A stretch of DNA of 64,000 bases from an uncultured Actinomycetota bacterium. Lineage in GTDB: Bacteria; Actinomycetota; Actinomycetes; JAHEKZ01. The DNA is taken from positions 8,279 to 72,278 of the forward strand of contig CAVPLY010000005.1 in NCBI GenBank assembly GCA_963706045.1. Direction: 5' to 3'. Below are positions 2,085 to 53,460 of the stretch, in pieces (position 1 is the first letter of the stretch; each line of letters opens with the position of its first letter). The position numbers and the translations under genes were made by a program. The notes beneath the pieces were generated by a model that was given only the letters and a program-made list of their open reading frames with translations, made no database searches and was not told where the DNA came from.

Positions 2085-2642
2085 CTACGCAGGCATGGCG
2101 ACGTGCTCGACGGCGCGGAGCCCCGCGGCACGTCCAGATCCTCCGCCCGCATGATCGACCAGATACGGAACCCAGGCCGGGTCGGCGCGCCCCGACCCAA
2201 GAATTCGCCAGGCCGGCCCAACCGGCTGGAAGGGAGCGTGCCGCATGTGCCACCCCAGATCGGAGACGCTGCGGTCGGCCTTGACGTGATTGCACCGCCT
2301 GCAGGCTGAGACAACGTTCTCCCAGATGTGGAGCCCGCCACGGCTTCGCGGGATGACGTGGTCAAGGCTGGTCGCCGGTGAGTCGCAGTAGACGCAGCGG
2401 CCGGCGTCGCGGGCGAACACCGCGCGCCTGGTGAGTGGGACCGCAGCCCGGCGCGGCACCCGGACGAAACGCACGAGTCTGACGACCGAAGGAAGCGGCA
2501 CTGCCCGCCGCTCGCTTCGGGCAACGCGGGCGGTGTCCTCGACGGCGTCGGCCTTTCGCGTCAGGACAAGCACCAGCGCCCTGCGGTCCGCGACGACGCA
2601 GAGCGGCTCGTAGGTGGCGTTCAGCACCAGAGCTCGAGACAT
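2085..2642 (-). CDS. HNH endonuclease family protein
   Basis: CVYCDS...LDHVIPRSRGG...NVVSACRRCNHVKADR is an HNH motif with zinc-binding cysteines. Start taken at the internal ATG (MSRALVLNATYEPL). Confidence 0.75.
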   Translation of the reverse strand: MSRALVLNATYEPLCVVADRRALVLVLTRKADAVEDTARVARSERRAVPLPSVVRLVRFVRVPRRAAVPLTRRAVFARDAGRCVYCDSPATSLDHVIPRSRGGLHIWENVVSACRRCNHVKADRSVSDLGWHMRHAPFQPVGPAWRILGSGRADPAWVPYLVDHAGGGSGRAAGLRAVEHVAMPA

Positions 2643-2728
2643 GGCGACACTAGTGTGACCCGACTCACGCCCAGGGGCCAGCAATATCGCCTCAAGGACC
2701 CGCTGGGCATGCCCCTAGGCTGGGCGGC

Positions 2729-33142: not shown

Positions 33143-34426
33143 TCACACGGCATTTGCCAGCCGCTCAACGACGTCCGCTGCCTTCTCTTGTGCCGGAGCC
33201 CCCTGCAGGTTGCGAGAGATTTCCGACATTCGAGCCTTCAGCGCGCTGTCGGCGAGCAGAGTGTCGACCGCTGAGACAATCTCGTCCTGAGTGGCCCCGT
33301 ACGTGTCAAGACGCCGACCGAAGCCCAGCTCTTGCACCCGTTGTGCATTGTCGTACTGGTCCCAGAAGAGCGGGAGGACGATCATCGGCAGTCCGAAGTT
33401 GAAGCCTTCGGTTACGGTGTTGTTTCCCCCATGCGTGATCAACAGGTCGCATTGCGGAAGTATCGACGGCTGCGGCAGGAACTCTCCGCCCCACATCCGC
33501 TCGCCAAGGCGCATCTGCTCGTGCAGCGGACCCATGCTCACGATCACCCGGTGAGGAGTCTGATCGAGGGCGTCAATAAGTCGCTGCATCAGGCTGAGAT
33601 CGTTGCAGCCGAGACTGCCCATGGACAGGTAGACCACCTTCCCGTCGCCAGGCAGAACCGAGTCGACATCGAATGCCTCCTCACCCGTGCGAACCGTGGT
33701 GTCGAGACGTGTCCATGTCGCATCGAGGGGAGTAGCGCGTCTGTAGTCCATGACCTCCGGGAAGAGGTAGAGATTGGCGAAGGGCGAGTTGTACTGGAAA
33801 TGGCCACTCGGCAGCGGGTCGGCACCCACCGAGGTGTTGAAACTACTCAGCTCCTCAATCAGCGGATCGTGAAGGCGCCGGTACTCAGCTTCGAAGTCAG
33901 CCCATTCCGAACGGTCATCAGTGGGGAGGCCGGAGAAGGGTGGTGGCAGGTCAGGGTCTTCCATTTCGAGCGGGTTCGCCGAAACCATCCGGACCCAGGG
34001 CACTCCCGCAAGCGGTACAGCAGCGAACCCCACAACGTTGTCAGAGACAATGACGTCCGGTCGGTGCTCTGCCCAGATTTTCATCAGCCTTTCGTGGGCG
34101 TAGCGCCCGCCGCCAACGAGCTCCTCCCAGATTGGCTTGATCACGGTCGCGAGCTGTTCAATCGTCGGCTTGCGAAACTCGGGGGCGGTAGCCCGGATGA
34201 ACTCGGCCCACCCCTCCCCTGCTGCCTCCGGGTTCTCCGGCGCTGGCCCAAGCCGCATCAGCGCCTCGTCGAATCCCCTACTAGTCAACTTGCCTTCAAA
34301 AGACTCCTCGACAACGAACAGGCACCTCGTCCCACGGGAACGGAGCGTCTCGGCGATGGCCACCAAGTTGTTCGTAGGACCCCAAGCCCCAGGCTCAGGA
34401 AAGAAGGCAACCGTCCTTTGCGACAT
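33143..34426 (-). CDS. Family 1 glycosyltransferase (MGT/UDP-glycosyltransferase type)
   Basis: C-terminal UDP-sugar-binding motif region (LLITHGGNNTVTEGFNFGLPMIVLPLFWDQYDNA). GGAGGGAG Shine-Dalgarno upstream. Confidence 0.85.
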   Translation of the reverse strand: MSQRTVAFFPEPGAWGPTNNLVAIAETLRSRGTRCLFVVEESFEGKLTSRGFDEALMRLGPAPENPEAAGEGWAEFIRATAPEFRKPTIEQLATVIKPIWEELVGGGRYAHERLMKIWAEHRPDVIVSDNVVGFAAVPLAGVPWVRMVSANPLEMEDPDLPPPFSGLPTDDRSEWADFEAEYRRLHDPLIEELSSFNTSVGADPLPSGHFQYNSPFANLYLFPEVMDYRRATPLDATWTRLDTTVRTGEEAFDVDSVLPGDGKVVYLSMGSLGCNDLSLMQRLIDALDQTPHRVIVSMGPLHEQMRLGERMWGGEFLPQPSILPQCDLLITHGGNNTVTEGFNFGLPMIVLPLFWDQYDNAQRVQELGFGRRLDTYGATQDEIVSAVDTLLADSALKARMSEISRNLQGAPAQEKAADVVERLANAV

Positions 34427-34547
34427 GTGCGTCTCCCTCCACCGCGACATTGCACGGCTCGTACGGGATACAACGAACTCCGGATCCTAGTGGAGGGCGT
34501 CGGACATCAGACGTCCTCAGTCGCCGTCACCAGCCAACCCTGCTGCT

Positions 34548-34802
34548 TCACGCCTGCCGCCACCGCGACCAGGCGGCCTGCTTGGTGGTTCCGGCGACGT
34601 CGGCCACCTGGGACCACGACCCATTCTCGGCGAGTGTGCGCGCCGAAATCCCTAGGCACTTCCCCACCTCTTCACTGACTCGAAGCAACTCTTCGAACGC
34701 TTCGAGATCGGGACGAGTTGCCAAGTCGCGCAGCGCACGCACCACAAGGTCACCGATCTGGTCGACCGACTGAGTACCTGCTTGCTCACGACGCTGTGTC
34801 AT
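34548..34802 (-). CDS. Small helix-turn-helix protein (hypothetical regulator)
   Basis: 84 aa with a C-terminal helix-turn-helix-like segment (SWSQVADVAGTTKQAAWSRW). The N-terminal 45 aa are paralogous to the N-terminus of the adjacent C45 hydrolase. Confidence 0.45.
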   Translation of the reverse strand: MTQRREQAGTQSVDQIGDLVVRALRDLATRPDLEAFEELLRVSEEVGKCLGISARTLAENGSWSQVADVAGTTKQAAWSRWRQA

Positions 34803-34856
34803 GCCTCCACTGTCTACTGCAACGCGACCTGGGACAAGTCGCAGTGGACACGTTTC

Positions 34857-36122
34857 CTACCGAAGCCGAACCCTGATCTCGTCCTCCGCCGACGCGAAAG
34901 TACGACTCCACGTCGCGCCAGGCCAGCGATACGTAACCACCCCGTCGTCCGGTCGGTAGTCCGCGGTGTACAAGGTGCCGAAGCCGTTTTCAAAGTCGGT
35001 GCTTCGCAGCGACGGGGACAAGAACTCCTCCGCTGCAACGTCCGCAGGTCGCGATTCTCGGTCGAGCCGGCGCAGCACGTCCTGGCGTTCGACACTCCGG
35101 AACCTGCGCGCTAGGTCGGGTCGGTCTGGCACAAGTCCACGGTGGTTAGTCGCCAACGGCATGTCGAAGTACTCCGGGGCGCGTCCCGGAGCCACGAACG
35201 CGGTGACCACGACCCCTGACCGATCGGTCAACGTCAGGTTGTAGCTAGCGGCGACGGGCATCCGATCGATGACGCGGCGCGCATCGGCGACGCTGTCACA
35301 CACCTCCAGGAGATAGCGCAGGACCAGAGGAATAGCGAAACCGTCGCCGGTTCCTGGCAGCCCTCCGAACGTCAACGAGACTGCCAGACCCCGGTCGTTC
35401 GTCCCGTCCAATAGGCCCCACAGACAGTCGCTGGTACCGATGACGCGTCGTTCACCCCATCTGGTCGACATGCTGACACCTTCGAAGAGGGCAGGGTCGT
35501 AGTCGTAGTTGCGCAGCAGGGCCCGGTGCTGTCCGGATGCCACGAGCTGCGAGCACCCCGGTGCGAAAGCCGGCGGGTTCCACAGCGCGAGCATCCGCGC
35601 AACGTCACTGTCGTTACCGGCCAACGTGACGAGGTGCTGCCACATCGGGAGGAGCTCCGGCATGTGTTGCCTGAGGGCTGACCGGGACTCCGAGAGCGTG
35701 GACCGGCGATCCCAGCCTTCAGAGGCATGCCACGCCCGGTATGACGGCCAAGTCGCCTCGAGCAATGCGCTCCACGCCGGACCGGGACGATCCTCCTGGA
35801 TCCCGGTCATGGTGAGGACCACGGGGACGGGAGCTGCCGCTGGTTCCACCAGCGAAGAGCGCCGCACGGCGCTGGTCCGGCACTCCGCAGCACTCGAGGC
35901 AGGTGGTGCCGTGCGGGGCTGCGCGCGGGTGGGTCGCGTCCTGGGGGAAGCTCCGAGGCAGCGACCGAGGTCACCCATGGATCGGCCCAGGTGCTCGAGA
36001 GTCCGCAGCAGCTGTGCTGCCTCATGGTCGGTGCGTCGACCCAGCTCGTCACAGACCGACGTGAGGTGGCTGGCGAGTTCAGGCGTCGTGAGGGATGTGA
36101 TTGCTGGGTGCTCAGTTGTCAT
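34857..36122 (-). CDS. C45-family (acyl-CoA:6-APA acyltransferase-like) Ntn-hydrolase with an extra N-terminal helical domain
   Basis: The central and C-terminal region (CSQLVASGQHRALLRNYDYDP...GLLDGTNDRGLAVSLTFGG) fits the C45/choloylglycine-hydrolase-like fold. Confidence 0.65.
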   Translation of the reverse strand: MTTEHPAITSLTTPELASHLTSVCDELGRRTDHEAAQLLRTLEHLGRSMGDLGRCLGASPRTRPTRAQPRTAPPASSAAECRTSAVRRSSLVEPAAAPVPVVLTMTGIQEDRPGPAWSALLEATWPSYRAWHASEGWDRRSTLSESRSALRQHMPELLPMWQHLVTLAGNDSDVARMLALWNPPAFAPGCSQLVASGQHRALLRNYDYDPALFEGVSMSTRWGERRVIGTSDCLWGLLDGTNDRGLAVSLTFGGLPGTGDGFAIPLVLRYLLEVCDSVADARRVIDRMPVAASYNLTLTDRSGVVVTAFVAPGRAPEYFDMPLATNHRGLVPDRPDLARRFRSVERQDVLRRLDRESRPADVAAEEFLSPSLRSTDFENGFGTLYTADYRPDDGVVTYRWPGATWSRTFASAEDEIRVRLR

Positions 36123-36235
36123 GCCGTCAAGTTTGCCTTGACGGCATGATCTTCGTCAACTTTCCCTTGACGATGCATGTTGGTCACGCCGGGGAGCACA
36201 TCCTCCGAGCGAACGACAGATCGAACGACAGATAC

Positions 36236-38246
36236 CTACTCGCGAGCGAACGGGACGCCGAGACACACATCGGCATCGGCCTCGCGCGCGTAGCGGTGTC
36301 CCGAGTAGACGGCAGTCGCGATCGTTCCCGGAGCAAGACAGTCGCCGATGCGCTGGATGGGAATGTGCTCGTTCAGCGCGTGGTAGAGGGCGTCCACGGG
36401 CTCGCGGGACGTGACCATCACCACGTTCGCGGCCTCGACCTCTCTGGCGGCCCCGGTATGGATGGACTCGAGCGTCACCGAGCCCTCGTTGACACGGGCC
36501 AAGGCCATTCCCGTTTCGACGTGCGATGCCGAGCCCGAGGATCCTCGCCTGGATTCGATGCTGCTCGTCGGTGTACGTCGTCCAGGTCGAAACCTCATTC
36601 GCGGGCGTTACCAGGGTGACCTCGAGGCCAGCGCGCCGCAGGGCTTCGGCGATGACCCCGCCGAGGTAGTAGTGGTCGTCGTCAAACACGACCACAGGTC
36701 CGCTCGGCATCGTCCCAGCCATGATGTCGTCCGGGGTGAGGACACTTGGCGAGTCCGATCCCGGTATCGCCGACGTATGCCACCGACCGAGGCCATCTCT
36801 TCGCCACTTGGCGCCCGTTGCGACCACCACGCGGTCGGGAGCGAACTCGAGGATCTGTTCGGCGTCGATAGTGCTGTCGAGGTAGACCTCGACGTTCGCC
36901 AGCTTCTCGATCTGGTTGAGCCGCCAATCGCGGACCCGCGCCCACTGACCAAGCCCTGGCAACGACGACTCAAGCGTGACCCGACCCCCAAGCGATCTGC
37001 GGGCCTCCGCCAGGGCGACGTCGTAGCCGCGCTTGCCGAGTGACACCGCCGCTTCGAGACCTGCGGGGCCTCCCCCGACGATCAGGATCCTCGCGTCCGA
37101 CCCCCTCACCGGGATGCGCTCGGGATGCCAGCCCTTCCGCCACTCCTCGCCCATCGTGGGGTTCTGTGTGCAACGGATCGGGGTGCCCGTCTGGTCGCCC
37201 GTGTAGCAGATGTTGCACCCGATGCATTCGCGGATCTCGTCGTCGCGTCCTTCGGCGATCTTCTGGGGCAGGAACGGATCAGCAATCGAAGGACGTGCCG
37301 CGCCCACGAGATCGATGACGCCGTCACGCACGAGCCGCAGCATCGTCTCTGGCGAGGTGAAGCGCCCCACGCTGACGACGGGTTTGCTTGTCACGCTCTT
37401 GACCCATGACGTCGTCGCCTCGAGTGCAGCTTCAGGGGTGAACCGCGATGTCCCCATCTCAATGCTGTAGTCGTGCACTGTGATGTCCCACAGATCCGGA
37501 AGATCCGCCATGAGCGCCAACATCTCCCTGGGCTCCTGCGTGTCCTGATCGTCGTCGTCACCACCGGTGCTCGCGGAGAAGCGCACCGCCACCGCACACG
37601 TGTCCCCGATGGCTTCCTTCGTTTCCACGATCAGTTCTCGTAGGAGCCTGGCCCGGTTCTCGAGTGAGCCGCCGTACTCGTCGGTTCGCTGGTTGGAGGG
37701 CAGCAGGAACTGCCGAATCAGATACTGGTGCGCTGCATAGACATAGACGATGTCGAATCCAGCTCGCTGTGCTCGTCGTGCCGCATCGACGTGCCAGCGT
37801 TTGAACTCCCGGATATCGGCCTTGTCCATCGCTCGGGTCTGAACGGGGTCGTAGACACCAGCCGGAACGCTGGCCGGGCCGAGCGGGGCTTCACGCGAAT
37901 AGTGGTTTGCACTCGAGGCCCCCCCATGCCAGAGCTCGACGCCGGCGAGAGCGCCGTGGGCGTGGACCTTGTCGACCATGAGCGCGTGGCGATCGATGTC
38001 CTGGTCATCCCACAAGGAGGCGGAAGGATACGGCTCGTCATCGGACGATGGGTGAATCGAGCAGTATTCGGTGCACACGGTGCCCCACCCACCCTCGGCC
38101 TTCACCTCGCGCATCCCGGCGAGAGTCTGAGGCCGTCGGTATCCCATGCCCGTGCAGTGGGGAACCTGGTAGAAGCGGTTCGGGGCCGTCACCGGTCCAA
38201 TGCGAACCGGCTCGAAGAGGACGTCGAAGCGAGGATCGCGCGGCAT
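36236..38246 (-). pseudogene. Old-Yellow-Enzyme-type NADH:flavin oxidoreductase fused to an FAD/NAD(P)-binding domain (2,4-dienoyl-CoA reductase-like); frameshift near the C-terminus at about 36600
   Basis: OYE TIM-barrel N-terminus (FEPVRIGPVTAPNRFYQVPHCTGMG), 4Fe-4S cysteines (CIGCNICY) and Rossmann region (ILIVGGGPAGLEAAVSLG). The final ~100 aa of ORF 36156..38246 are Arg-rich junk. The true C-terminus (VDALYHALNEHIPIQRIGDC...) lies in ORF 36236..36598 in another frame. Confidence 0.8.
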
Positions 38247-38481
38247 GTTCGCCCTCCGAGGGTGTGTGGCCCAGCGAACTTATCAACCCCGCACACCCCA
38301 CCAGTCGTTCTGGACGGGACCAGCGACTCCAGCACTCGCCAACCTTCCGCTCCAACATGTCGGTGATCATGTCAGTTGATTCCCCACAGCCCCGCTTCAT
38401 TGCTAGGTTCACCGAACGCACAGACATCGGCGGCAGCCCAAGAAAGTCCGCAGCGGTCAGCACTCAAGGAGGTGGTGAAAG

Positions 38482-39285
38482 GTGAATGTGGACCCCAGCG
38501 GAGCGTCAGCGCCGACAGTCACGAGGCTGTTCACGACCCCAATCAAGGGGTTCACGCTGGGCCAACCTGCAAGCGTCACCCTGGGGAGAAACGGGGCAGA
38601 GGGCGATCGTGACTTCTTCGTCATTGACAGCAACCAGGAGCTCCTGTCGATTACGAGGACAGGTGCCTTTGGGGGTTGGCAGGCTCAGTTTGATCGAGAC
38701 CAAGGTGTCCTGACCCTCGTGTCCTCCGATGGCCGCGTCCTCGAAGACAAGGTCGTCAGGGGTGCTGATGCAGTGGTCGACTTCTGGGGGTCACATGAAG
38801 TCCCAGGTCACATCGTGGATGGCCCTTGGTCGGTCTGGCTGTCTGAGATCGCGGGCCAATCGGTCGACTTGGTGCGCGCGACAGAGCCGGGTGGAGCCAA
38901 CGATGAGACGGCTGTCACGGTGGTCTCGGAGGAGTCCGTCGCTGAGCTGGGGCGAGTGACCAACACCGGGGCGATCGACATCCGCCGATTCCGGATGCTC
39001 ATCAACATCTCCGGTGTTGATTCCTACGAAGAGGAGACCTGGCGCCCCGCCACCGTGCGTATCGGTTCTGCCTTGCTGAAGATGCGGGGCCCGGTGCCTC
39101 GGTGCAACGCCACGACCCGGAATCCTGACACGGGAGAGAAGGACCTGAAGACGCTGCGACTCATCGCCGAGGGCCGCGGGATGCAGCCGGATGAGTTTGG
39201 CGAAGAAGGACTCAATCTGGGCGCTTACGCCGAGGTCGTTGAGCCTGGCGTCGTAAGCGTGGGTGACCGGGTCGAGTTGGTCTAG
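38482..39285 (+). CDS. MOSC domain protein (MOSC_N beta-barrel plus MOSC)
   Basis: RLFTTPIKGFTLGQ is the MOSC_N start. C-terminal MOSC region with the conserved Cys (RGPVPRCNATTRNPDTGEKD). Confidence 0.8.
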   Translation: MNVDPSGASAPTVTRLFTTPIKGFTLGQPASVTLGRNGAEGDRDFFVIDSNQELLSITRTGAFGGWQAQFDRDQGVLTLVSSDGRVLEDKVVRGADAVVDFWGSHEVPGHIVDGPWSVWLSEIAGQSVDLVRATEPGGANDETAVTVVSEESVAELGRVTNTGAIDIRRFRMLINISGVDSYEEETWRPATVRIGSALLKMRGPVPRCNATTRNPDTGEKDLKTLRLIAEGRGMQPDEFGEEGLNLGAYAEVVEPGVVSVGDRVELV

Positions 39286-39374
39286 TCCTCGACATCAATC
39301 CCGGATCAGTACACATTGCGGTGCCCTGGGAATGAGTCGGTGGGGGCGCCTGTTCCCCCACGAGACGACCAAGG

Positions 39375-40124
39375 TTGACCGTGATGGTGAGAAGGGAACT
39401 TGCGGTGCGCGTCTCCGGATTGTGGCGCTACCCGGTCAAGTCACTGGGGGGTGAGACCCTCCAGTCCGCCGAGCTGACTCTCGATGGAGTTGCGGGGGAC
39501 CGGGTGGTACACGTAAGCGGTCCCCGAGGACCACTGACCGGACGGACGCGGTACGGCCTTCTCACGGTCCCGGCGAGCACCGGATCAGATGGTGTTCCGT
39601 ATGTCGCTGGTCATCGCTGGGACTCTGATGAGGCGGCCGAAATCATCAGCCAGAACGGCGGACTGGGCGCGCGGCTCGTCGCAGACGAAGGGCCAGACCG
39701 CTTCGATGTACTCAACCTCCTCGTCGCCACCGACGGAGCGGTTGAACGATTTGGCCATGACGTCCGCAGACTGCGACCGAACCTGCTGCTCGCTGGTGTA
39801 CCAGCCGACATTGAGCCCACGATGCCTGGTCAGGCCATCGCCATTGGGGACGCACTGATCGGCGTCCACTCGGTCCGTGGCCGATGCGTTGTCACGTCGA
39901 TCGACCCAGACTCCGGCGAGCAGGACATGGATGTCTTCCGCCGGATTCACACCGTGTTCGGGGGAGAGTTGGCACTCAACTCTTGGGTCATCCGACCAGG
40001 CACGGTTCGCGTAGGTGATGAGGCAAGCCTGGTGGCCCTCGAGGCCGAGCCAGTTCACCTCGGCGGTTGGGTTGTCGGTGCTCCCTACCCGCACGCGACC
40101 GAGAGCCCGCGCCGGCGGTCGTAG
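39375..40124 (+). CDS. MOSC domain protein (second tandem paralogue)
   Basis: LWRYPVKSLGGE is the MOSC_N start. VRGRCVVTSIDPDSGEQD contains the conserved MOSC cysteine. Confidence 0.75.
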   Translation: MTVMVRRELAVRVSGLWRYPVKSLGGETLQSAELTLDGVAGDRVVHVSGPRGPLTGRTRYGLLTVPASTGSDGVPYVAGHRWDSDEAAEIISQNGGLGARLVADEGPDRFDVLNLLVATDGAVERFGHDVRRLRPNLLLAGVPADIEPTMPGQAIAIGDALIGVHSVRGRCVVTSIDPDSGEQDMDVFRRIHTVFGGELALNSWVIRPGTVRVGDEASLVALEAEPVHLGGWVVGAPYPHATESPRRRS

Positions 40125-40189
40125 GCAGCTGTTACGACTGAACACCACCTCGTGCCGCCCTCGCCCAAAACGCCTAGGCACGCCACACG

Positions 40190-40300
40190 TGGCGGCGGCC
40201 ATCGACGGACAACAGCCACCGCCCCAAGTGGCTGCTTGATTCCCCCGCTTCCACCAAGTCGCGACATCTCGCTCAACCGCGCCCGCTCGCACGACGGATC
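40190..40300. mobile_element. Scar: about 110-bp remnant homologous to the 3' flank of the IS transposase fragments at 49430-49560 and 50960-51090
   Basis: catcgacGgacaacagCcaccGccccaagtGgctgc... aligns with catcgacCgacaacagTcgccAccccaagtAgctgc... at 49430 and with the end of ORF 50447..51007. Confidence 0.5.
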
Positions 40301-40310
40301 AGCCGGCCGG

Positions 40311-40348
40311 GGGCCTGCCTGATCCGCGCGATCAGTTCTTCGTGGAGC
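40311..40348. repeat. 37-bp diverged duplicate of the LuxR gene's 5' coding region (second copy at 46054-46090 inside the LuxR CDS)
   Basis: ggccTgcctgatccgcgcgatcagttcttcgtggagc versus ggccCgcctgatccgcgcgatcagttcttcgtggagc. On the minus strand it encodes LHEELIARIR. Contains the 17-bp near-palindrome ctgatccgcgcgatcag. Confidence 0.6.
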
Positions 40349-40371
40349 AGACGGTCGATCTGCCAGATACC

Positions 40372-41775
40372 TCAGGCAGTAGCCGCGAGACGACCGGCCT
40401 CGGCTCGGTCCGCGGCGGCTTGCGCGCGGTCGCCCAGCTGTTCAGCGAGCGTCGCCTGCTTGAGCCAGTTGTAGGGACTGCACGGCTTGAGGTTGATGCG
40501 TTCACTGAGGAGCTGTCGTGACTGGGCAGATCGGCCGCTGCGCAGGGCGGCCTCGAGCAGGGTGCGCTGGATCGCGTCCCGTTGCGCGTGGCTACCTCCG
40601 AACTCATTGAACCTGTAGCGCAGGGGCATCAGCGCGTCGACGACGGCGTCGTAGTGTCCCGCCCCGAAGTCGAGCATCGCCTTGCACACAGGCAGCCCGA
40701 TTTCGCGAGTCATGGTTGCGTTAGTCACTGCGTCCGGAGCAGTAGCCAGCCAGCTCTCGCGGTCCTGGATCAAGCGTTCTGCGCGGTCGAAACTACCTGC
40801 GCCGACGTAGGACATGACGGCGTGCATGTCGTTGAACGCGTAGCAGGGAGTTTGCATGGCGGGCACCCAAGCATCTGCGAGAGTGCGCCACCGCTCAGTC
40901 TGGTCATCACCCTCTAGATAGAGCCGCCACAGCAGGGCGGCGGCATCGAGCATCTCCATCGCCAGGCCAGCCGACTCGTCGTTGTTGATGACGGAATCGA
41001 AGATTCTGAGTACCCGCTCACGGTCTCCGACCTCGAGCCCAAATAGGCAGCGGTGCCACCAGTTGTGCACGTTGAGGAAGTTCCCGGTGCCCCAGTCGTC
41101 AGTACGGTCATCGAGGTACGAGATCCCCAGGTCGAAGCGTCCCTGCATCTCATAGGTATGCACCACCGCGTGGATACCCCAGACATCGGTCGGGTCCGCT
41201 GCCACGGCGGCAAGGCCGACGTCCTCGGATCGGTCGTAATGACCGGCTTCCTCCAATCCAAAGGAGTACATGCCCAGCAGCTGTGCTCGGTGGGGTTCGT
41301 CGTCGCCCCACGCCGTGAGCGCGCCTCCGACCCGGTCCCGCAGCGAGGTCGCGTCACCGGAGAAGAAGTCAGCTTGGTGACCAACGGCGAGGGCCAGCAC
41401 GTCGCGTGGGTAGGCGACGGTGAGATCGCGAAGGAGTGCCCCGGCTCCTTTCAAGTTTCCGTCCAACCACGCCTGCGCAGCCTCGACGTGCCTGTGCTCT
41501 CGATCGCCCAAGACTGTCTCGTCGGCGCCGGCCCGCCAGCTCACAAAGGCCGTTCGAGCTGCTTGGGTGTCGGCGGCCTCAGTGCCCAGAACGCCGAGGT
41601 AGGCACTGAACACCTGGGCCATCGCCATGTTCGGGTCGACCTCTAGGGCTGCCGCCAATTCGTCGCCCACGGCTGGCCGGAAATGTAGAAGGTGGTCTAT
41701 CGCCGTGTCGTAGTGAGCGACCGCCGCGACATCGGTGGGACCTAAGCCATTGCCGTGTTGATCCGTGTTCGCCAT
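40372..41775 (-). CDS. Tetratricopeptide-repeat (TPR) protein
   Basis: 467 aa of helical repeats from the ATG at 41775 (MANTDQHG...), with an AGGAGC Shine-Dalgarno upstream. The upstream 63 codons of ORF 40372..41964 are discarded. Confidence 0.7.
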
Positions 41776-41910
41776 GGCCGGGATTCTGCTCCTGATGCGG
41801 CAAGATAGCGAGGCTCCCGGGGTCCGCCCTTCCGGTCCCGCGTCAAACGGCCACCACCCAGGGAGATTTCGACGCTGGTAGGACGTGCGGAGGGCCACTA
41901 CAGTGCTGCG

Positions 41911-43340
41911 ATGAGCGCTCAGACGGTAAACACAGTTCCCACTCCAGCGACCTGGCCAGCTCACGACCCGGCCACCTATCGCGTCATCCCCGAGGGCGCC
42001 GCCCCGCTCGACCCGGCACGCGTGGCATCGCTACTCGCGGCCGAATGGGAACGATTCAAGGCACAGACGCCCAACTCCGGTGCTCACCACGCCCGCGCGC
42101 TCGGCTCGCTGCCGCTCGGCGTGCCATCGTCCTTTCAGTACTGGGACCCCTATCCCGTGGCGATCACCAGCGCCAACGGTGCCTGGCTGACCGACGTCGA
42201 CGGCCGCCAGGTACTCGACCTCTCGATGGGCTTCGGCGCCATGCTGGTGGGCCACCTCAACCCCACGGTCGTCGCCGCAGTCGGCAAGGCCCTGGAGACC
42301 GGAACCCTGTTCGTCACCCCGTCACCGTCAGCGACCGAAGCGGCCGAGCGCTTCCAGCGGCGCTTCGGACTCGACAAACTCCGGTTCACCAACTCTGGGA
42401 CCGAAGCCACAATGTACGCAGTCCGCACCGCGCGTGCGTTCACCGAACGCAAGGCGATCATCAAGATCGAGGGCGGCTACCACGGCGGCTACGACGCTCT
42501 GCAGGTCTCGGTGAAACCCGATGTCGCCGACATCGGACCCGAGGAGGCACCTACACCGCAAACACCGTTCGAGGTGGAGGCGGGAACGGTCTACGTCGTT
42601 CCCTACAACAACCTCGCACGCTGGAACAGCTCTTCGCCGAGCACGGTTCCGAGGTTGCCTGCGTCTTCATGGAACCGGTGATGGAAAACATCGGGATCGT
42701 AGTCCCCGACGAGGGTTACCTCGCCAGTGTGCGCGCCATGTGCGATGCCAACGGCGCCCTCCTGGTGTTCGACGAGGTCAAGACCGGCCTCACGGCCGGG
42801 CCTGCCGGAGCCGCGCAACGGCTCGGAGTCACGCCGGATCTGATCTGTCTGGCCAAGAGCATCGGGGGTGGCCTGCCCCTCGCAGCCTTCGGTGGACGCG
42901 AAGAGGTCATGGCCTGCGTGTCCGACGATCGCATGCCGCATTTCGGCACCTACAACGGCAACCCGCTCGTCGTGGCAGCCGCTGTGGCGATCGATGAGAT
43001 CGCCACAGCCGAGGCGCTCTCATCGGCCGAGAAGCTCAATGTCGACGCCCTCGAGGCGATGAACTCGATCATCAACGAGCATGCCCTACCGGCCCACACA
43101 GTGGGCCTGGGCGTCAAGGGTGCGGTCACCTGGTCAACGACCCCAGTGCGCAACTATCGCGACTACAAGCGCACCGACTTCGGTGCCGCCGAGCTCAGTT
43201 GGCTCTGGGGCGTCAACCGCGGCATTCTGACCCCGCCCGGGCTCGACGAGCAGTGGCTGGTGTCGCTGGCTCACACCGCCGACGACATGAACATTCTCGT
43301 CAGCGACTTCCGCGAACTCGCCGAGGCCCTTCGCGGCTGA
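41911..43340 (+). pseudogene. Class III (PLP-dependent) aminotransferase, glutamate-1-semialdehyde aminomutase-like; single frameshift near 42612
   Basis: N-terminal part (FTNSGTEATMYAVRTARAFTERKAIIKIEGGYHG) in ORF 41911..42681. C-terminal part with the PLP lysine region (LLVFDEVKTGLTAGP...CLAKSIGGGLPLAAFGG) in ORF 42045..43340. The junction is ...VYVVPYNNL / EQLFAEHGSEV. Confidence 0.85.
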
Positions 43341-43382
43341 GACTGGACTGAATCGTCGATCTCGAGCGAAAGACGTCAATCC

Positions 43383-44978
43383 ATGACCGACGCCCACCGG
43401 TATGACGCAATCGTTGTCGGAGGCGGCCACAACGGCCTTGTCAACGGCGCCTACCTCGCCAAAGCGGAGATGAACACGCTCATCCTCGAGCAACGTCACC
43501 TCGTGGGGGGCGCCGCTATCACCGAGGAGCTCTACCCCGGCTTCAGCTTCACGACGTTCTCCTACGGGCTGAGTCTGGTCCGACCCGAGGTGATTCGTGA
43601 GCTCGAACTGGTCAAGCACGGATTCAACCCCATCTACATGCCGACGGTATTCGCCCCGATGGAGAACGGCGACTATCTGCTGCTCGGCCCCGACCGGGAC
43701 GAGAACATCCACGAGATCGGGCGGCACTCTCGGCGCGATGCCGACGCCTTCGACCGTTACGAGCACGACCTAGCACGCGTCCTTCAGATGTTGTACCCGC
43801 TGTCCGACCGAGTGCCACCCGACATCTTCGGCAGCACCCCCGAGGACGCCGAGGACGTCGCCTGGCTGCTCGGGCACCTCGGGTCGGCAGACAAGAAGGT
43901 CATCCACGATGCCGTCCGGATCATCACGGGCAGCGTCTCGGACTTCCTGGACGACTACTTCGAGAGCGAGATCGTCAAGGGTTACCTTGCTGCATCCTCC
44001 ACGACGGGCACCAAGGTCGGACCGATGTCAGCGGGCTCGGGTCTGGTCTGGTTGATGCAGATGCTGGGCGAGCACGACGGTCACCTCGGCTCGTGGTCGT
44101 TCCACAAGGGAGGCAACGGCGGGTTCACTCAAGTGCTGGGGCGCGCGGCGCAGTCGTTTGGTGCCGAGATCCTCCTTGACTCGCGCGTTGACCACGTACT
44201 GACCAAGGATGGCAAGGCGGTCGGCGTCGTCCTCACCGACGGAACCGAGTTCCACGCCGACACCGTCGTCAGCGCCCTCGACCCGCGCCAGACGTTCACC
44301 AAGCTTGTCGACCCCCGCGAACTGCCGTCGGACCTGGTCGAGAGCATCGACCGCTACCAGTTCAACGGCACCAGCGCCAAGGTCAACTTCGCGCTCGACG
44401 ATGTACCTCGGTACCCAGCGCTCGGAGACCGCACCGACCAGTACCGCGGCTTCGTCAGCATTGCCCCGTCGATCGAGTACCTCGAGCGCGCCTATGACAC
44501 CTCAAAGTACGGCTGGTACAGCGAGCGTCCGTACCTCGACACCTGCTTTCAGACTTTCCTCGATCCCGATATGGCGCCTCCCGGCAAGCACGTCATGTCG
44601 TGCTTCGTCTCCTACGCGCCGTACCACCTCAAGGGCAGCGACTGGGACACCGAGCGCAACAACCTTGGCGACACGGTGCAAAGCACCATCGAGTCGTTCT
44701 TCCCCGGCTTCGGTGACCTGGTGCTGCACCGAGAGGTCGTCACGCCGCTCGACATCGAGCGGGTCGTCGGGCTCTCCGAAGGCAACATCTACGCCGGCGA
44801 CTACCTACTCCCGCAGCTGTACTTCTTCCGCCCGGCGCCCGGGTGGAGTCAGTACCGCACGCCGATCGAGGGCTACTACCAGTGCGGCTCAGGCACTCAC
44901 CCGGGTGGCTGCGTCACGGGGGCGCCCGGACGCCTGGCAAGCCAGCAGATCCTCAAAGACCGCTCCCTAACGATCTGA
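43383..44978 (+). CDS. FAD/NAD(P)-dependent oxidoreductase, phytoene-desaturase/amine-oxidase superfamily
   Basis: YDAIVVGGGHNGLVNGAYLAKAE is the dinucleotide-binding motif. 531 aa. Start 40 nt after the aminotransferase stop, so a likely operon. Confidence 0.85.
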   Translation: MTDAHRYDAIVVGGGHNGLVNGAYLAKAEMNTLILEQRHLVGGAAITEELYPGFSFTTFSYGLSLVRPEVIRELELVKHGFNPIYMPTVFAPMENGDYLLLGPDRDENIHEIGRHSRRDADAFDRYEHDLARVLQMLYPLSDRVPPDIFGSTPEDAEDVAWLLGHLGSADKKVIHDAVRIITGSVSDFLDDYFESEIVKGYLAASSTTGTKVGPMSAGSGLVWLMQMLGEHDGHLGSWSFHKGGNGGFTQVLGRAAQSFGAEILLDSRVDHVLTKDGKAVGVVLTDGTEFHADTVVSALDPRQTFTKLVDPRELPSDLVESIDRYQFNGTSAKVNFALDDVPRYPALGDRTDQYRGFVSIAPSIEYLERAYDTSKYGWYSERPYLDTCFQTFLDPDMAPPGKHVMSCFVSYAPYHLKGSDWDTERNNLGDTVQSTIESFFPGFGDLVLHREVVTPLDIERVVGLSEGNIYAGDYLLPQLYFFRPAPGWSQYRTPIEGYYQCGSGTHPGGCVTGAPGRLASQQILKDRSLTI

Positions 44979-45003
44979 GTAATCACCGCCTCTGAAGAAC
45001 TAC

Positions 45004-46164
45004 TCAGGATTCGGCGCTATGGGTCGTCGGCGCCTGCAGGTGGCCGCCAGCGTTGAGCGGGTCATGCGCCACGATGCCCGGCAGCTGGTCGTGGAAGAAC
45101 ACCTGCGCCAACAGCTCCTTGCGGGAGCGCGTGTCGGTCTTGGCGAAGATCGCCTTGAGATGGTCCTGCACCGTCCACGGGGAAATGACGAGCCTGTCCG
45201 CGATGGCCGCGGTGTCCAGCCCGCGGGCAACCAGGCTGGCCACCTCCTGCTCCCGCGCGGTGAGACCGAAAGCCTCCAGCCGCAGCGGCACCGCGTACTC
45301 CTCGCCCGCTCGCTGCACGACGATCGCGACCCGTCCGGTCGACGCCTCGTCGGGCAGCGAGCCGTGCAGCGTCAACCACCCATCAGACGTCGGGATGTGC
45401 AACGGCTGGGCGAACCGACCCTCGCGTCCCTGTCGACGTACCTCGGCGGCCAAGGCCAGCGCCGGAACTGGGACGTTTCGTTCGATCGGGTCGTCGCGCA
45501 ACACCGGGGCGAGCAGCGCGGTGGTGGTTGGCGTGGACAGCTCGACGTCGTCGTTGGCGTCAAGGATCAGCAGGCCGGGGGCGCGGTGCTCGTCGTGTCG
45601 TAGGGCGGCGTCGAACCGGTAGGAGTTGCGCAAAGCCTCGGCGATCGGCCGCGACATTCGAGCCATCAGGCGGGCGTCTTGCGCGGTGAAGTCGCCTGTG
45701 TCCTTGGTCCGGTGCATGACGACGCAGCCCCAGGCTCGTCCGCGTGTGACCATCGCCACCCGCATTTCGTATGGAGTCCCGATCGGTTCCAGAAACTCGC
45801 GGTAGCGGGCGCTTCGCTCCGGGCGGCCCCGCGTGGTCTCGCTGAGGATCCCGACGGGGATGCGCCGCGCTGCAAGCACGGCAAACTGGTTAATGTCGTC
45901 GCGCAGGTATTCGCTGGTGACGACGGCCTGGGCTGCCGCCTGTTCGGTCGCCGGCGTGAGGAACCCACCGGTCATCAGCTCCATCGGGTTCGCCGTGGTG
46001 AGCAGCTTGGTCTCGGGGTCGAGGCCGTGCCAGCAGGCGGCGTCGACCGGGAAGGCCCGCCTGATCCGCGCGATCAGTTCTTCGTGGAGCCGTGCGTAAG
46101 GCAGGCCGCGGGTGCCGAGGCGTTCCACGTCGGCTACGAGCCTGTCGCCATCCGAGGGGGACAT
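45004..46164 (-). CDS. LuxR-family transcriptional regulator (N-terminal sensor-like domain plus C-terminal LuxR helix-turn-helix)
   Basis: C-terminal FGLTAREQEVASLVARGLDTAAIADRLVISPWTVQDHLKAIFAKT is a LuxR helix-turn-helix. The first ~173 codons of ORF 45004..46683 look like non-coding sequence, so start is taken at MSPSDGDRLV. Confidence 0.7.
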   Translation of the reverse strand: MSPSDGDRLVADVERLGTRGLPYARLHEELIARIRRAFPVDAACWHGLDPETKLLTTANPMELMTGGFLTPATEQAAAQAVVTSEYLRDDINQFAVLAARRIPVGILSETTRGRPERSARYREFLEPIGTPYEMRVAMVTRGRAWGCVVMHRTKDTGDFTAQDARLMARMSRPIAEALRNSYRFDAALRHDEHRAPGLLILDANDDVELSTPTTTALLAPVLRDDPIERNVPVPALALAAEVRRQGREGRFAQPLHIPTSDGWLTLHGSLPDEASTGRVAIVVQRAGEEYAVPLRLEAFGLTAREQEVASLVARGLDTAAIADRLVISPWTVQDHLKAIFAKTDTRSRKELLAQVFFHDQLPGIVAHDPLNAGGHLQAPTTHSAES

Positions 46165-46308
46165 CCCCCCATAGTGCCCCCGCGCTGACGGATCGGCGCC
46201 CACATGCACGAAAGATCCCAGGCACGGGGGGATGTCTGAGGTGCCTGGCTGCGAGCACCGTGGAGTTGTCGCAAAGGTGCGGCATCGAAACCAACCCGAG
46301 GAGATCCC

Positions 46309-46680
46309 ATGAACACCTCCAGCCCCACGAAGCTCGCAACCCAGACGGTCTGCTTCGCCGCCCCCCTGCTCACCGGCACCACATCGGTGGATCGCGAGGA
46401 GATGCTCTCCTGCTGGACCGGCGTGCGACACGACGAGCACGCCGCCTCCCGCCGGCAGCACGGCATTACCCGCGAGGCGGTATGGATCCAGCCCACGCCG
46501 GGCGGAGACTTCGCATTGGTCCTCCTCGAGTCGGCCGACCTGCCGAGGGCATTGCTCGGCATCGCGACATCGCAAGAGCCGTTCGACGTGTGGTTCCGCG
46601 AGCACCTGAAAACCGTCCACGGCATGGACTTGTCGCAGGGAATGACGCTGCCGGAGACGGTCCTCGACTACCGAGCCTGA
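46309..46680 (+). CDS. Hypothetical protein (about 123 aa)
   Basis: ATG with a GAGGAG Shine-Dalgarno 7 nt upstream. Divergent from the LuxR gene. No recognisable motif. Confidence 0.5.
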   Translation: MNTSSPTKLATQTVCFAAPLLTGTTSVDREEMLSCWTGVRHDEHAASRRQHGITREAVWIQPTPGGDFALVLLESADLPRALLGIATSQEPFDVWFREHLKTVHGMDLSQGMTLPETVLDYRA

Positions 46681-46832: not shown

Positions 46833-47031
46833 GGGCGGATGCGAGCAAGAATCCGCCCGTTGGACTTGATCCGCCCCGATCGCGGCCGGGCCCAGCCGGT
46901 TTCCCACAGGAATTCCGAATGTCCCGCCCCGTAGGGCGTGCGTGAAACTCCTGACACCCCCGCTGACCTGAGTGTTCACCGGTACGCGAATGCACCGCGC
47001 AAGCGAACCTGCGCAGATCCGGAAGTGGCGG
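46833..47031 (+). repeat. Copy 1 of a ~190-bp structured intergenic repeat with hairpin core CGCAcGTCC-N10-GGgCGTGCG
   Basis: Modules cttgatccgccccgatc / ggtttcccacaggaattccgaatgtcccgccccgtagggcgtgcgtgaaactcc / ctgacctgagtgttcacc / atccggaagtggcgg. Preceded by an 8-bp-stem hairpin gggcggat-N10-atccgccc. Confidence 0.75.
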
Positions 47032-47271
47032 CTCTCCTACGTGCTGGGTCTGCGACCGCCCTCCATCGACGGCGAGGGCTCTCCTCCCCCGCTCACCTCT
47101 TCAGAGGTCTCATCATCGCGGGCACAGGGACTCTTCCGAGTCCCTGTCGGCGGCCTTTACGACTACTCCTCGAAACCCAGACACCGAACCCAAAGGCACC
47201 CTTCGTGGCGCCGCTTCATCAGGCAGCTGCAAGCGCCGGGCCAACGGGACCGGTTGCGCCGATCGGTGATG

Positions 47272-49369: not shown

Positions 49370-49560
49370 TGCCAGCACAACCAGACCGTCATCGTGCTGA
49401 TGGCAGCACTCGCCCAGAACGCTTGGGCACGCCATACCTGGCAGCGGGCCATCGACCGACAACAGTCGCCACCCCAAGTAGCTGCCTAACTCCCCGCCTC
49501 ACAACCTCACTCCACCTGGTTCAGCCGCGCCCACGACCGGGCTCGAGCGCCCGAAATCGC
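49370..49560 (+). mobile_element. Remnant of the 3' end of a DDE-transposase gene plus its downstream flank (IS scar)
   Basis: Encodes ...HNQTVIVLMAALAQNAWARHTWQRAIDRQQSPPQ, about 90% identical at the nucleotide level to 50895-51005. Immediately followed by repeat copy 2. Confidence 0.6.
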
Positions 49561-49574
49561 TCACTGACACTCCA

Positions 49575-49715
49575 CTGAGGGCCAAACCCACAAGGAATGC
49601 CGCACGTCCCGCCCCCGTAGGACATGCGTGAAACTCCGTCAGCCTCACCTGACCTGTGTGTTCATTGGAGCCCGAGGGTGTGGCGGAAGTGGATCGGGTC
49701 AGTTCCGGAAGTGAC
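49575..49715 (+). repeat. Copy 2 of the ~190-bp hairpin repeat; lacks the left about 70 bp
   Basis: ggggccaaacccacaaggaatgccgcacgtcccgcccccgtaggacatgcgtgaaactcc...cacctgacctgtgtgttcattg...ttccggaagtgac. Confidence 0.75.
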
Positions 49716-49973
49716 TCAATCGAAAGAGCCCACGCTGAAGTTTTCTAGGCCCGGCATCTGGCGGCCGATGACATCGTCGCCGCGGCTAAGTTCGAAGACG
49801 CCTGTCCTGAGGTCGAGTGTGAGCTCGTCGTAGAGACCGTATCCTCTAGACAGCTCTGCTGAATCTCTCCGACCTGGCCCACCGGATATCACCAGACCCG
49901 AGGTAGGCACGATGTTGTGGTAGATGGCGTCCCAGTCACCCGCGCTCCTCCCCCGTGAGGAACCAGTCGTCAA
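49716..49973 (-). CDS. Hypothetical small protein (85 aa); could be a gene fragment
   Basis: ORF only. Located between repeat copy 2 and the transposase remnant. No motif recognised. Confidence 0.25.
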   Translation of the reverse strand: MTTGSSRGRSAGDWDAIYHNIVPTSGLVISGGPGRRDSAELSRGYGLYDELTLDLRTGVFELSRGDDVIGRQMPGLENFSVGSFD

Positions 49974-50446: not shown

Positions 50447-51007
50447 GTGATCAGCAAGTACGGCCACGCCGCCACCCAGCTCCCGCCAAGCCGAACACGC
50501 GCAGCGTGGATAGAAGAATGCGGAGGGCACGTCCTCTACGCGGCCGGCGGGACGATCTACGAGCGCGTCGTGACCGCCGACGGAAGCCTCGACTTCGTCG
50601 AAGTCACCCGCCACCAGACCAAACGAGACCGCAAGGCTGATGGGAACTGGGCGTTCTACGCCCGGCACACCCTGACCTGCCGATCTACCGGCGACCTGCA
50701 CGACTGGTGGGAGCCGCTCACCCCGACCCAGACGGACGAGGCACACAAGTTCAATCGCAGCGACTACCTGCGCGTCCTGCCCCCGACCGACCCCGACTAC
50801 AGCCGCGTCTACGGCATGCGGGCTGACACCGAGTCGCTGAACGCGCAGTTTGAGCGCGCCTTCTACAACCGAAGGCTCCCGGCCTGGGGCCTCCACAACC
50901 AGACGGTCATCGTGCTCATGGCAGCACTCGCCCAGAACGCCTGGGCCCGTCACACCTGGCAACGGGCGATCGACCGACAACAGTCACCGCCACAAGCAGC
51001 TGCCTGA
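50447..51007 (+). mobile_element. DDE transposase C-terminal fragment (IS pseudogene; IS4/ISAs1- or IS256-like C-terminal motif, family uncertain)
   Basis: YSRVYGMRADTESLNAQFERAFYNRRLPAWGLHNQTVIVLMAALAQNAW resembles transposase C-terminal Y-R-E / ESLN...LxxL signatures. There is no N-terminal HTH or DDE domain, so it is truncated. Confidence 0.55.
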
Positions 51008-51093
51008 CCCCCCCACTTCACACCGAAGCCAAACCGGGCTCAACCACGTCCCCACACCGATCCACAGTCACAAAATCGTTCCCTGACAGCCCC

Positions 51094-51310
51094 ATCGGGG
51101 CCAAACCAGCGCCAAAGCCCGCCCCCTAGACTTAATCCGCCCCGATCCCAACCGATCGCGGCAGGGTCCAGCAGGTTTCCCACAAGGAATCCCGCACGTC
51201 CCGCCCGCGTAGGACGTGCGGAAAACTCCCCGCGCCGCACCTGACCTGCGAGTTCACCATGGCGCGAGCGCCTACTGGAAGCGAATATGGCCAGATCCGG
51301 AAGTGGCCGC
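51094..51310 (+). repeat. Copy 3 of the ~190-bp hairpin repeat (full length)
   Basis: ctagacttaatccgccccgatc...cgcggcagggtccagcaggtttcccacaaggaatcccgcacgtcccgcccgcgtaggacgtgcggaaaactcc...cacctgacctgcgagttcacc...atccggaagtggccg. Confidence 0.8.
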
Positions 51311-52250: not shown

Positions 52251-52445
52251 GTCCCGCCCTCTAGACTTGATCCGCCCCGATCCGAACGGTTCGCGGCAGG
52301 GTCCAGCAGGTTTCCCACAAGGAATTCCGCACGTCCCGCCCCCGTAGGACGTGCGTAAAACGCCCGGCACTGCACCTGACCTGCGTGTTCATCAGAGTGT
52401 GAGTGCACGGTGGAAGTAGAAATGGTCGAATCTGGAAGTAGCGTC
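52251..52445 (+). repeat. Copy 4 of the ~190-bp hairpin repeat (full length)
   Basis: ctagacttgatccgccccgatc...cgcggcagggtccagcaggtttcccacaaggaattccgcacgtcccgcccccgtaggacgtgcgtaaaacgcc...cacctgacctgcgtgttcatc...atctggaagtagcg. Confidence 0.8.
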
Positions 52446-52479: not shown

Positions 52480-53460
52480 TCACTCGTCAGCTACCGGCCT
52501 CCTCGCCTGGAGACTGCTGAGCCTTTCCTCGGCCTTCTCCAGTTGCTTGGCGATCCGGCCCCGGAGCTGGGTGGTGCGGTCGAGTTCGGTCAGTGCGCTC
52601 GTGGCTGTCACTGAGCCTTCGAGGACCTGACGGTTGTCCAGCTGCTCGATGAGCTTTGCTCGACGCTCGTGGATCCAGACCCTGACCTCGCGCGGCTCCT
52701 TGAACAGGTGCTTGTAGTACGCGCGGAAGACGCGGTACCACTCTTCCTCGGTGACCGGGGTGATCTCATCGGTCCACTGATCCTCGACGTCCTTGTTACC
52801 CGACTTCATCCGCATGAGCGGGGCCAGCACGTCGTAGCGGAAGTCATGCGGGTCATCTGAGGCTCCAAGCTCTTCGGAGGGCTCCACACCTTCGAGCCGC
52901 GCATCTTCGGCGAAGGTCCACTCCCACAGTCGGTCCAGCCACTCCAGGTTCAGGGTCAGACCTTCCTCTCGGCCGTAGGAGTTGGTGGCTCTCTTGGCCC
53001 CCGTGTGGGCAGAGGCCTCGAGCAGGGCCTCTTCGTAGCAGTCGAGACGGCGGAGCTGCAGCAGGAGCATCAGGATCTGGTCGACTGCTCGCTGCTCGAC
53101 GGCACCTTGCGGGGCGTAGGCCTCAAGCAGTGAGACTAGGAACCCATCAACCTCGGTTGGGTCCTCGGCCATCGACCCCCGGGTGATAACTCGACGCTTG
53201 GCCGCGAAGACGCCATGCGTGGTGGCCTTCTGCGAGGAGCGCTGCTTGCCTTCCTCGGTCCGCGGCCCGGTGCTCTTCTGGGCGTTGGCGGCGTTGGCGC
53301 GCTTCTGCGCCTCGGTGGGCTTGGTCGACCTGGCTTGACTCTTCGCCCTGGTGGGCTTCTGCTTGGTAGGTGGCGCTGAAGTGGTCTTCCGCGGCATCGC
53401 CTTGCGGGCGGCCGCCTTCGGTGCCTTGCCTGCGCCGGCTGGGGTGCTGTCCTCTGCCAT
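52480..53460 (-). CDS. Hypothetical protein with a Lys/Ala/Pro-rich histone-H1-like N-terminal tail and a conserved acidic C-terminal domain
   Basis: ATG with a GAAGGAG Shine-Dalgarno. The N-terminal 95 aa are about 25% K/R and A/P-rich (AGKAPKAAARKAMPRKTTSAPPTKQKPTRAKSQ...). The MAEDPTEV motif is repeated. Confidence 0.6.
   Translation of the reverse strand: MAEDSTPAGAGKAPKAAARKAMPRKTTSAPPTKQKPTRAKSQARSTKPTEAQKRANAANAQKSTGPRTEEGKQRSSQKATTHGVFAAKRRVITRGSMAEDPTEVDGFLVSLLEAYAPQGAVEQRAVDQILMLLLQLRRLDCYEEALLEASAHTGAKRATNSYGREEGLTLNLEWLDRLWEWTFAEDARLEGVEPSEELGASDDPHDFRYDVLAPLMRMKSGNKDVEDQWTDEITPVTEEEWYRVFRAYYKHLFKEPREVRVWIHERRAKLIEQLDNRQVLEGSVTATSALTELDRTTQLRGRIAKQLEKAEERLSSLQARRPVADE

Follow-up and report, generated by a model that had tools for sequence, protein, structure and literature searches.

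What is a piece of a regulatory gene doing in the gap between two other genes, 5.7 kb from the intact copy? The question is raised by a 64,000-nt stretch of DNA from an uncultured Actinomycetota bacterium (contig CAVPLY010000005.1 of assembly GCA_963706045.1, positions 8,279 to 72,278), which we call the window and by whose positions all coordinates are given. Here the 247-nt gap between a TPR-like gene and the convergent MOSC2, which ends at 40124, contains a non-coding copy of part of a LuxR-type regulator gene. We find that window 40154-40348 is best explained as a composite rearrangement scar, an old fragment of a repeated element joined to a young 69-nt LuxR relic, without a function of its own. 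That a second LuxR copy decayed here next to element debris is highly probable, and the gap as a whole (40125-40371) would best be annotated as the relic of a LuxR pseudogene together with a piece of a mobile element.

The parent of the relic lies at 45004-46164 on the minus strand and encodes an intact 386-aa regulator, GAF-like with a LuxR/GerE helix-turn-helix (HTH) domain (Pfam GerE and a weak GAF match), that has more than 600 homologues. Three blocks of the relic, all on the minus strand, align to this gene. The first, p1 (GGCCTGCCTGATCCGCGCGATCAGTTCTTCGTGGAGC; 40312-40348), is identical to 46054-46090 at 36 of 37 positions and corresponds to LuxR codon 25 (third base) through codon 37, RLHEELIARIRRA. 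It lies on the 3' side of the TPR gene, 23 nt from the stop codon at 40372-40374. A sequence-only reading of the window had noticed this one-mismatch copy, placing its start at 40311 rather than 40312, and had pointed out the near-palindrome CTGATC-CGCGC-GATCAG, which is indeed found within p1. None of 100 dinucleotide-preserving shuffles of the window produced a match to the 37-mer. The same reading had described weaker homology running some 20 bp further. There is more LuxR sequence at that place, but it belongs to a second block, p2 (40296-40314), which comes from 474 nt deeper in the gene. Found by sensitive self-comparison, p2 matches 45564-45582 (LuxR codons 195-201, APGLLIL) at 18 of 19 positions. 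At up to two mismatches its pattern is expected 0.02 times across the window, and the sole other occurrence is the one inside LuxR, on the same strand. A gapped, weak extension of p1 (CGGCCGGG--GGCC against 46044-46057) was dropped, p2 being statistically far stronger. The third block, p3 (40280-40296), is identical to 45303-45322 at 17 of 17 bases across a 3-nt gap (11/11 to 45303-45313 and 6/6 to 45317-45322) and represents codons 281-288 without the CAG codon for Q284.

Taken singly, p3 and p2 (the latter without the three bases it has in common with p1) each reach a shuffle p of about 0.02. As a colinear chain they score 27, compared with 15.8 ± 1.7 in 400 shuffles, whose maximum was 21. 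The three blocks agree with LuxR at 71 of 73 aligned bases. Together they make up a relic of 69 nt (40280-40348) from a parent of 1,161 nt, and span 788 nt of that gene with order and strand conserved. The offsets from relic to gene, 5742, 5268, 5026 and 5023, correspond to deletions of 474 nt (in frame), 242 nt and 3 nt. Short microhomologies mark the junctions: GGC, common to p1 and p2 at the 474-nt deletion, roughly ATC, and the 5-nt CGCCC at which p3 overlaps the element fragment. LuxR codons 1-24 and 289-386 are absent, and the relic's reading frame ends after 26 codons. The sequence-only reading had proposed a duplicated 5' fragment. The regulator was in all likelihood once present in two copies, as that reading had allowed, but because the three blocks are colinear the second copy would have extended to at least codon 288 and been more than a 5' fragment. 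Colinear identity in several blocks beyond chance, lost coding integrity and an origin in the same lineage are all found here, as for a gene relic.

Silent sites identify the source of the relic. Its codons 26-30 read CTC CAC GAA GAA CTG, exactly as in the window's LuxR gene, while orthologues at three loci of relatives, L019, L020 and L021, have CTG CAT GAG GAG in the corresponding places. Those orthologues are 89-93% identical in protein and differ at 5-7 of the 37 positions of p1. Because the synonymous sites fit the resident gene and not the orthologues, the relic is a recent derivative of this lineage's own LuxR rather than of a distant homologue. The sole mismatch in p1 falls in codon 36, CAG in the relic and CGG in the resident gene. 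As CAG is also found in L019 and L021, the relic preserves the ancestral state, and the change took place later in the live LuxR gene.

The other half of the scar is older. Window 40154-40284, on the plus strand, is an internal fragment of a multi-copy, transposase-like element, recognised by tblastn with the 186-aa open reading frame (ORF) at 50447-51007. It aligns to 49403-49532 at 102 of 132 positions (77%) and to 50921-51051 at 101 of 133 (76%). It consists of the final 28 codons of the repeated ORF, frameshifted, a stop at 40237-40239 and 45 nt of non-coding sequence, and it is without the terminal repeat of about 190 nt, D1, that comes next in other copies. The sequence-only reading had called 40190-40300 the 3' remnant of an insertion sequence (IS). 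A piece of a repeated element is certainly present, with other limits, and for the label IS the family reaches no Pfam or NCBIfam threshold. This internal fragment is truncated on either side, so that it meets the LuxR relic at a deletion junction, not at an insertion site. Identity is 97% between relic and LuxR but only about 77% between the element fragment and its paralogues, a contrast in age consistent with an old resident element and a recent duplication.

How could such a scar arise? We lean, by a modest measure, towards a full history of duplication and collapse, and infer the order and mechanism of its events as follows. A transposase-like element would already have been resident downstream of TPR and convergent with it, as it is in L002, L040 and L045. 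A direct duplication of 40349-46090, with a period of 5,742 bp, would then have brought LuxR codon 25 up against the sequence immediately 3' of the TPR stop; the outcome would be equivalent if a circle with this segment had re-inserted by a Campbell-type single crossover. The product would be a promoterless, 5'-truncated LuxR' lacking codons 1-24, placed immediately downstream of TPR in the left unit. One large deletion, from the 3' non-coding region of the element to LuxR' codon 288, with the CGCCC microhomology at its junction, would have removed the redundant unit, and smaller deletions of 474, 242 and 3 nt inside LuxR', at microhomologies of 3-4 nt, would have completed the decay. The order predicted to remain (element fragment, p3, p2, p1, spacer, TPR) is the one observed. 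At its right end, which corresponds to 46090, p1 borders directly on the TPR 3' flank, at an offset of 5,742 on the same strand; this is the b|a junction that should result if 40349-46090 was directly duplicated.

Relatives provide some support for these events. LuxR stands directly upstream of TPR and co-oriented with it in three independent contigs (L020, L024 and L025), and in L002, L040 and L045 a member of this element family converges on TPR from its 3' side. In L043, FAD and TPR are adjacent and convergent (FAD-> <-TPR), the expected product of such a duplication after complete loss of LuxR', which is compatible with the proposal and not specific to it. Several observations weigh against it. 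No intermediate, neither a full LuxR' nor a second TPR-AT-FAD copy, was found in the window or in relatives, and the scar itself was seen in no other contig examined. The 23-nt spacer at 40349-40371, between the relic and the TPR stop codon, has no significant similarity to the sequence 3' of TPR in six relatives, nor to the 5' region of LuxR, and so cannot be matched to a native flank. The element fragment is 67-81% identical to the TPR-adjacent copies in L040, L045 and L002, no higher than to other copies. L043, which is without AT upstream of FAD, does not derive from the duplication in any simple way. In L001, the closest relative with long flanks, OYE lies 26 nt past TPR, and the element, the MOSC genes and LuxR are all absent. 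This tight TPR-OYE junction therefore calls for at least one further event, in L001 or in the window.

That junction is also an argument for a different origin, in which illegitimate or element-mediated recombination would have placed the 2.1-kb segment 38259-40371 between TPR and OYE, the donor being another locus or a very close relative with LuxR already beside the element and the MOSC genes, and the relic being an eroded end. Relative to L001 the segment does behave as one indel, and the MOSC pair occurs in other contexts (L047, L048 and L049). But LuxR beside MOSC genes was seen in no relative examined, the segment is a patchwork of at least three sources (the MOSC2 flank reaches only to 40150, and the element fragment is truncated on either side), and the silent sites of the relic are those of the resident LuxR, which would require a donor almost identical to this genome. 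We regard this import as somewhat unlikely. The microhomology of 3-5 nt at every junction (GGC, ATC and CGCCC) suggests another route, without any full second LuxR copy. A break 3' of TPR would have been mended by template switching, in the manner of microhomology-mediated break-induced replication or fork stalling and template switching (MMBIR/FoSTeS), or by end-joining with filler, with LuxR close by as the template for three short pieces and a neighbouring element copy as the template for one. All of these templates are found inside 11 kb, and none of the pieces is long (16-37 nt, and 131 nt). Yet the strict colinearity and single orientation of the three LuxR blocks are expected from deletions and merely optional for template switching, and an element piece at 77% identity beside LuxR pieces at 97% is not what one event would yield from the present copies. 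We know of no documented multi-patch repair of this kind in actinomycetes, and judge the route decidedly unlikely.

Could the 37-nt block have been kept because it does something? The plus strand of 40312-40348 is complementary to LuxR mRNA over codons 25-37 and begins 188 nt past the MOSC2 stop, so that read-through of the MOSC operon could make an antisense RNA against the 5' part of that mRNA. Alternatively, CTGATC-N5-GATCAG followed by TTCTT could form a terminator hairpin serving the convergent genes, and there is one terminator-like match at 40319-40335. The scan for terminators found this one match where shuffles give 0.4 ± 0.6, its stem is just 6 bp, and promoter and terminator scans of the scar were not above background. 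The scar is in no second genome, p2 and p3 show plain decay, and youth explains the high identity of p1. A retained function is thus very improbable. Chance similarity, which the sequence-only reading had kept in reserve, or a conserved protein motif is scarcely credible. The GC-rich composition speaks for it and nothing more does; no shuffle in 100 matched the 37-mer and none in 400 exceeded the chain score, the region does not code for protein, and p1 is not conserved among LuxR orthologues, as the differences given above show. A duplicated LuxR copy worn down by deletions beside an older element fragment is the account that we carry forward.

The sequence-only reading had also raised the possibility that the two LuxR copies bracket a small acquired islet of four genes, TPR, AT, FAD and LuxR. 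The composition of the block is unremarkable. GC content is 0.647 window-wide (0.59-0.70 in sliding windows) and 0.62-0.70 over 34-52 kb, and GC at third codon positions (GC3) is 0.76-0.86 in the four genes, within the 0.66-0.86 of other genes of the window. No other sequence found holds the four genes as a unit; relatives hold TPR-AT-FAD, LuxR-TPR, TPR/FAD or TPR alone. The segment that acts as an indel relative to the nearest long relative is 38259-40371, not 40.3-46.2 kb. Because GC and GC3 are unremarkable and relatives carry the genes in other combinations, the TPR-AT-FAD-LuxR block is not an island. An identical arrangement in close relatives, which would have spoken against any rearrangement here, was not found either: no relative has the arrangement of the window.

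The relatives themselves show how variable the surroundings are. The TPR-like gene (40372-41772, minus strand; 466 aa with a weak match to Pfam TPR_14) has close relatives in uncultured actinomycete assemblies only, and exact-sequence look-ups of the window's LuxR, TPR and MOSC2 proteins returned no record. In L001, whose TPR protein is 94% identical, the order is OYE<-TPR<-AT->FAD->, and the contig matches window 36236-38258 and 40383-44959 colinearly. The match picks up again 12 nt upstream of the OYE ATG, the 26 nt between TPR and OYE being counted from TPR stop to OYE start codon, so that window 38259-40371, with MOSC1, MOSC2, the element fragment and the relic, is an indel relative to L001, which also carries a different gene at the window's LuxR position. 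L020, L024 and L025 (TPR 90% identical) read orf123<- LuxR-> TPR->, with LuxR directly upstream of TPR and AT-FAD absent. In L002, L040 and L045 (92-98%), what comes after TPR is the 3' end of a member of this element family, which converges on TPR just as it does in the window, and in L002 (92%) D1 repeats flank TPR on both sides. L043, where 81 aa of TPR can be compared at 94% identity, reads TPR-> <-FAD. Two sets of loci were reached from other genes and have no TPR. L047, anchored on MOSC2, reads AT-> MOSC1-> MOSC2-> <-GT, the last being the GT gene of window 33143-34450, and L019 and L021, anchored on LuxR, contain the orf123-LuxR pair. A single contig of 2.27 Mb contains L003 as well as L019, with about 190 kb separating the two loci.

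In all comparisons homology to the window breaks off at the TPR stop codon or no more than about 10 nt from it, and the sequence 3' of TPR differs in every relative examined. No LuxR relic was found 3' of TPR in L002, L024-L026, L040, L043 or L045; the 10-mers that occur in L043 do not follow the expected order and were put down to chance. On the other side of the gap, MOSC2, the second gene of the MOSC-domain pair, occupies 39405-40124 on the plus strand (Pfam MOSC and MOSC_N; 91% identical to P0172 from residue 11, its start set by 239-aa homologues) and is followed by its native 3' flank at 40125-40150, where blastn homology to L047 (213-1968 = window 38429-40150) ends. Across window 33143-46680, genes stand in a different order in L001, L020, L024, L025, L043 and L047, with the breaks at gene boundaries, and the shared genes are about 83-90% identical in DNA. 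No shared motif was found at the module boundaries between 38.2 and 47.1 kb. This locus is a very rearrangement-prone part of the genome, a neighbourhood reshuffled at gene boundaries between genomes that are just about 10% diverged.

Set against known systems, the scar is ordinary pseudogene erosion at a duplication or rearrangement junction beside a mobile-element fragment, and not a new system. Tandem-duplication join points and the collapse of duplications are familiar from gene amplification in Salmonella and E. coli. The scar resembles them in its direct repeat, in a period equal to the unit, in a b|a junction between unrelated sequences (the 3' flank of one gene and the middle of another) and in the loss of one copy. 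It differs in that the collapse would have proceeded by illegitimate deletions that left crumbs, not by traceless homologous recombination, and in that the duplication itself is reconstructed. IS elements are likewise associated with adjacent deletions and rearrangement hot spots. Here too a multi-copy, transposase-like element lies at the deletion junction, and related copies across the neighbouring 6 kb mark breakpoints in relatives. The junction, however, is away from the element terminus, so a classical transposase-mediated adjacent deletion is not preserved, and the element family is unclassified. Deletional decay of bacterial pseudogenes is well established (Kuo & Ochman, PMC2916853 and PMC2817411; Danneels et al., PMC6054270). 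Our case is alike in that a redundant, promoterless copy was probably cut by successive deletions to short colinear intergenic blocks, and different in that the parent is 5.7 kb away in the same locus, the relic is tiny, and all three internal junctions can be read together with their microhomology. It thus offers a clean, small case of the erasure of a redundant gene in a free-living actinomycete, with each deletion junction legible. The LuxR protein itself resembles BagY/FevT (NCBIfam NF041232) in having an N-terminal GAF-like sensor and a C-terminal GerE HTH, with an alignment over residues 24-357. At 151.7 bits against a cut-off of 700 it is neither a member nor an equivalog, and its genomic partners are orf123 and TPR instead.

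Of everything at this locus, the repeated element with its unclassified protein of about 500 aa most deserves separate attention. The window contains three fragments of it, and further copies occur in L002, L022, L023, L028, L040 and L045. The ORF at 50447-51007 is a 186-aa C-terminal fragment of the same repeated ORF, of which 49376-49486 represents the last 37 codons. Homologue sets of this ORF (P0121-P0171 and P0292-P0426) and a profile search that reached 652 representative clusters at E<=1e-3 give full-length members of 450-570 aa. Neither the fragment nor full-length homologues of about 500 aa matched Pfam, and the family had no NCBIfam, PHROG or PDB-sequence match at accepted thresholds. 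Below threshold in NCBIfam, full-length homologues resemble IS5 (E=0.0027, 17 bits against a cut-off of 140) and the C-terminus of IS1182 transposase (E of about 0.07-0.1; cut-off 270). The motifs GxDGK, xDGAxRG and YGMRxDTESLNAQxERAFY are conserved in the family. Because of these motifs, the multi-copy distribution and the occurrence mostly on short contigs, we consider a DDE transposase likely but unproven. The AlphaFold (AF2) model of the protein, with a predicted local distance difference test score (pLDDT) of 49.6, is too poor for use or for a fold search. As judged by what marks an IS with a DDE transposase of IS5/IS1182-like type, the protein misses the curated threshold, and the element is present in multiple copies within and between genomes. 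It may represent an undescribed IS family. No complete copy was found in the window or in the relatives' contigs examined, where the right end alone was seen (...CCGGAAGTGGC). In L022, an element homologue comes after frameshifted ORFs whose translations, judged by eye, resemble a tyrosine recombinase and an excisionase.

The terminal repeat, D1/D4, is a non-coding sequence of about 190 nt with four direct-orientation copies in the window, 1.1-2.7 kb apart, within 46853-47032, 49371-49718, 50889-51310 and 52253-52445. The right ends, near 47032, 49718, 51310 and 52445, share the sequence given above, and the copies have a conserved hairpin, CGCACGTCC-N10-GGACGTGCG. The consensus fold shows little covariation (3 pairs). 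Relatives contain the repeat at 2856-2998 and 4809-4997 in L002, 752-1323 in L040, and 256-428 and 1174-1319 in L045. The first copy in the window (46853-47032, plus strand; repeat families D2 and D4, alignment A3) is a solo terminal repeat, and the copies separate an ABC-2 gene, the transposase-like fragment and a SnoaL gene in a cassette-like manner. It is tempting to see the scar as one footprint of an uncharacterised mobile-element family, with a protein of about 500 aa bearing D..D..E and YREK-like motifs and a conserved and partly structured right end of 190 nt, whose activity or right-end recombination shuffles genes and gene pairs like cassettes among closely related actinomycetes. TPR, AT-FAD, LuxR-orf123, the MOSC pair, the ABC-2 gene and the SnoaL gene would then be the units so shuffled. 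We think this unlikely. Adjoining the last D1 copy is a 326-aa ORF on the minus strand (52480-53460) with a K/A/P-rich N-terminus and no family match in Pfam, NCBIfam or PHROGs.

The remaining genes of the locus lie between TPR and the LuxR partner. The class-III aminotransferase (AT; 41911-43340, plus strand) is split by a frameshift. The ORF at 41911-42681 covers Aminotran_3 positions 8-135 and the ORF at 42045-43340 covers positions 178-339, with a single frameshift near 42620-42640. The L001 orthologue (2121-3761, minus strand) is intact, and the split in the window reflects either pseudogene formation or an error in assembly or sequencing. The flavin amine-oxidase-type oxidoreductase (FAD; Pfam Amino_oxidase) follows at 43383-44978 on the plus strand. 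Window 44960-45026, which comprises the last codons of FAD, those of LuxR and the 25 nt between them, is unique. L001 is homologous only up to 44959, and L020, L024 and L025 only as far as 45027, so the FAD/LuxR joint is itself a rearrangement junction, at which both C-termini were remodelled. Rfam at gathering thresholds and a tRNA scan gave no matches anywhere in the window.

Divergent from LuxR lies its conserved partner orf123 (46309-46680, plus strand), which belongs to no Pfam or NCBIfam family and adjoins the GAF-LuxR gene divergently in every orthologous contig seen (L019, L020, L021 and L025). A 39-nt inverted repeat, 45570-45608 and 46418-46456, links the two coding sequences; its arms are 79% complementary, with an exact core of 15 nt, and it may be due to chance. 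Both arms encode RHDEH in their own reading direction, and the left arm begins within 45564-45582, the parent sequence of p2.

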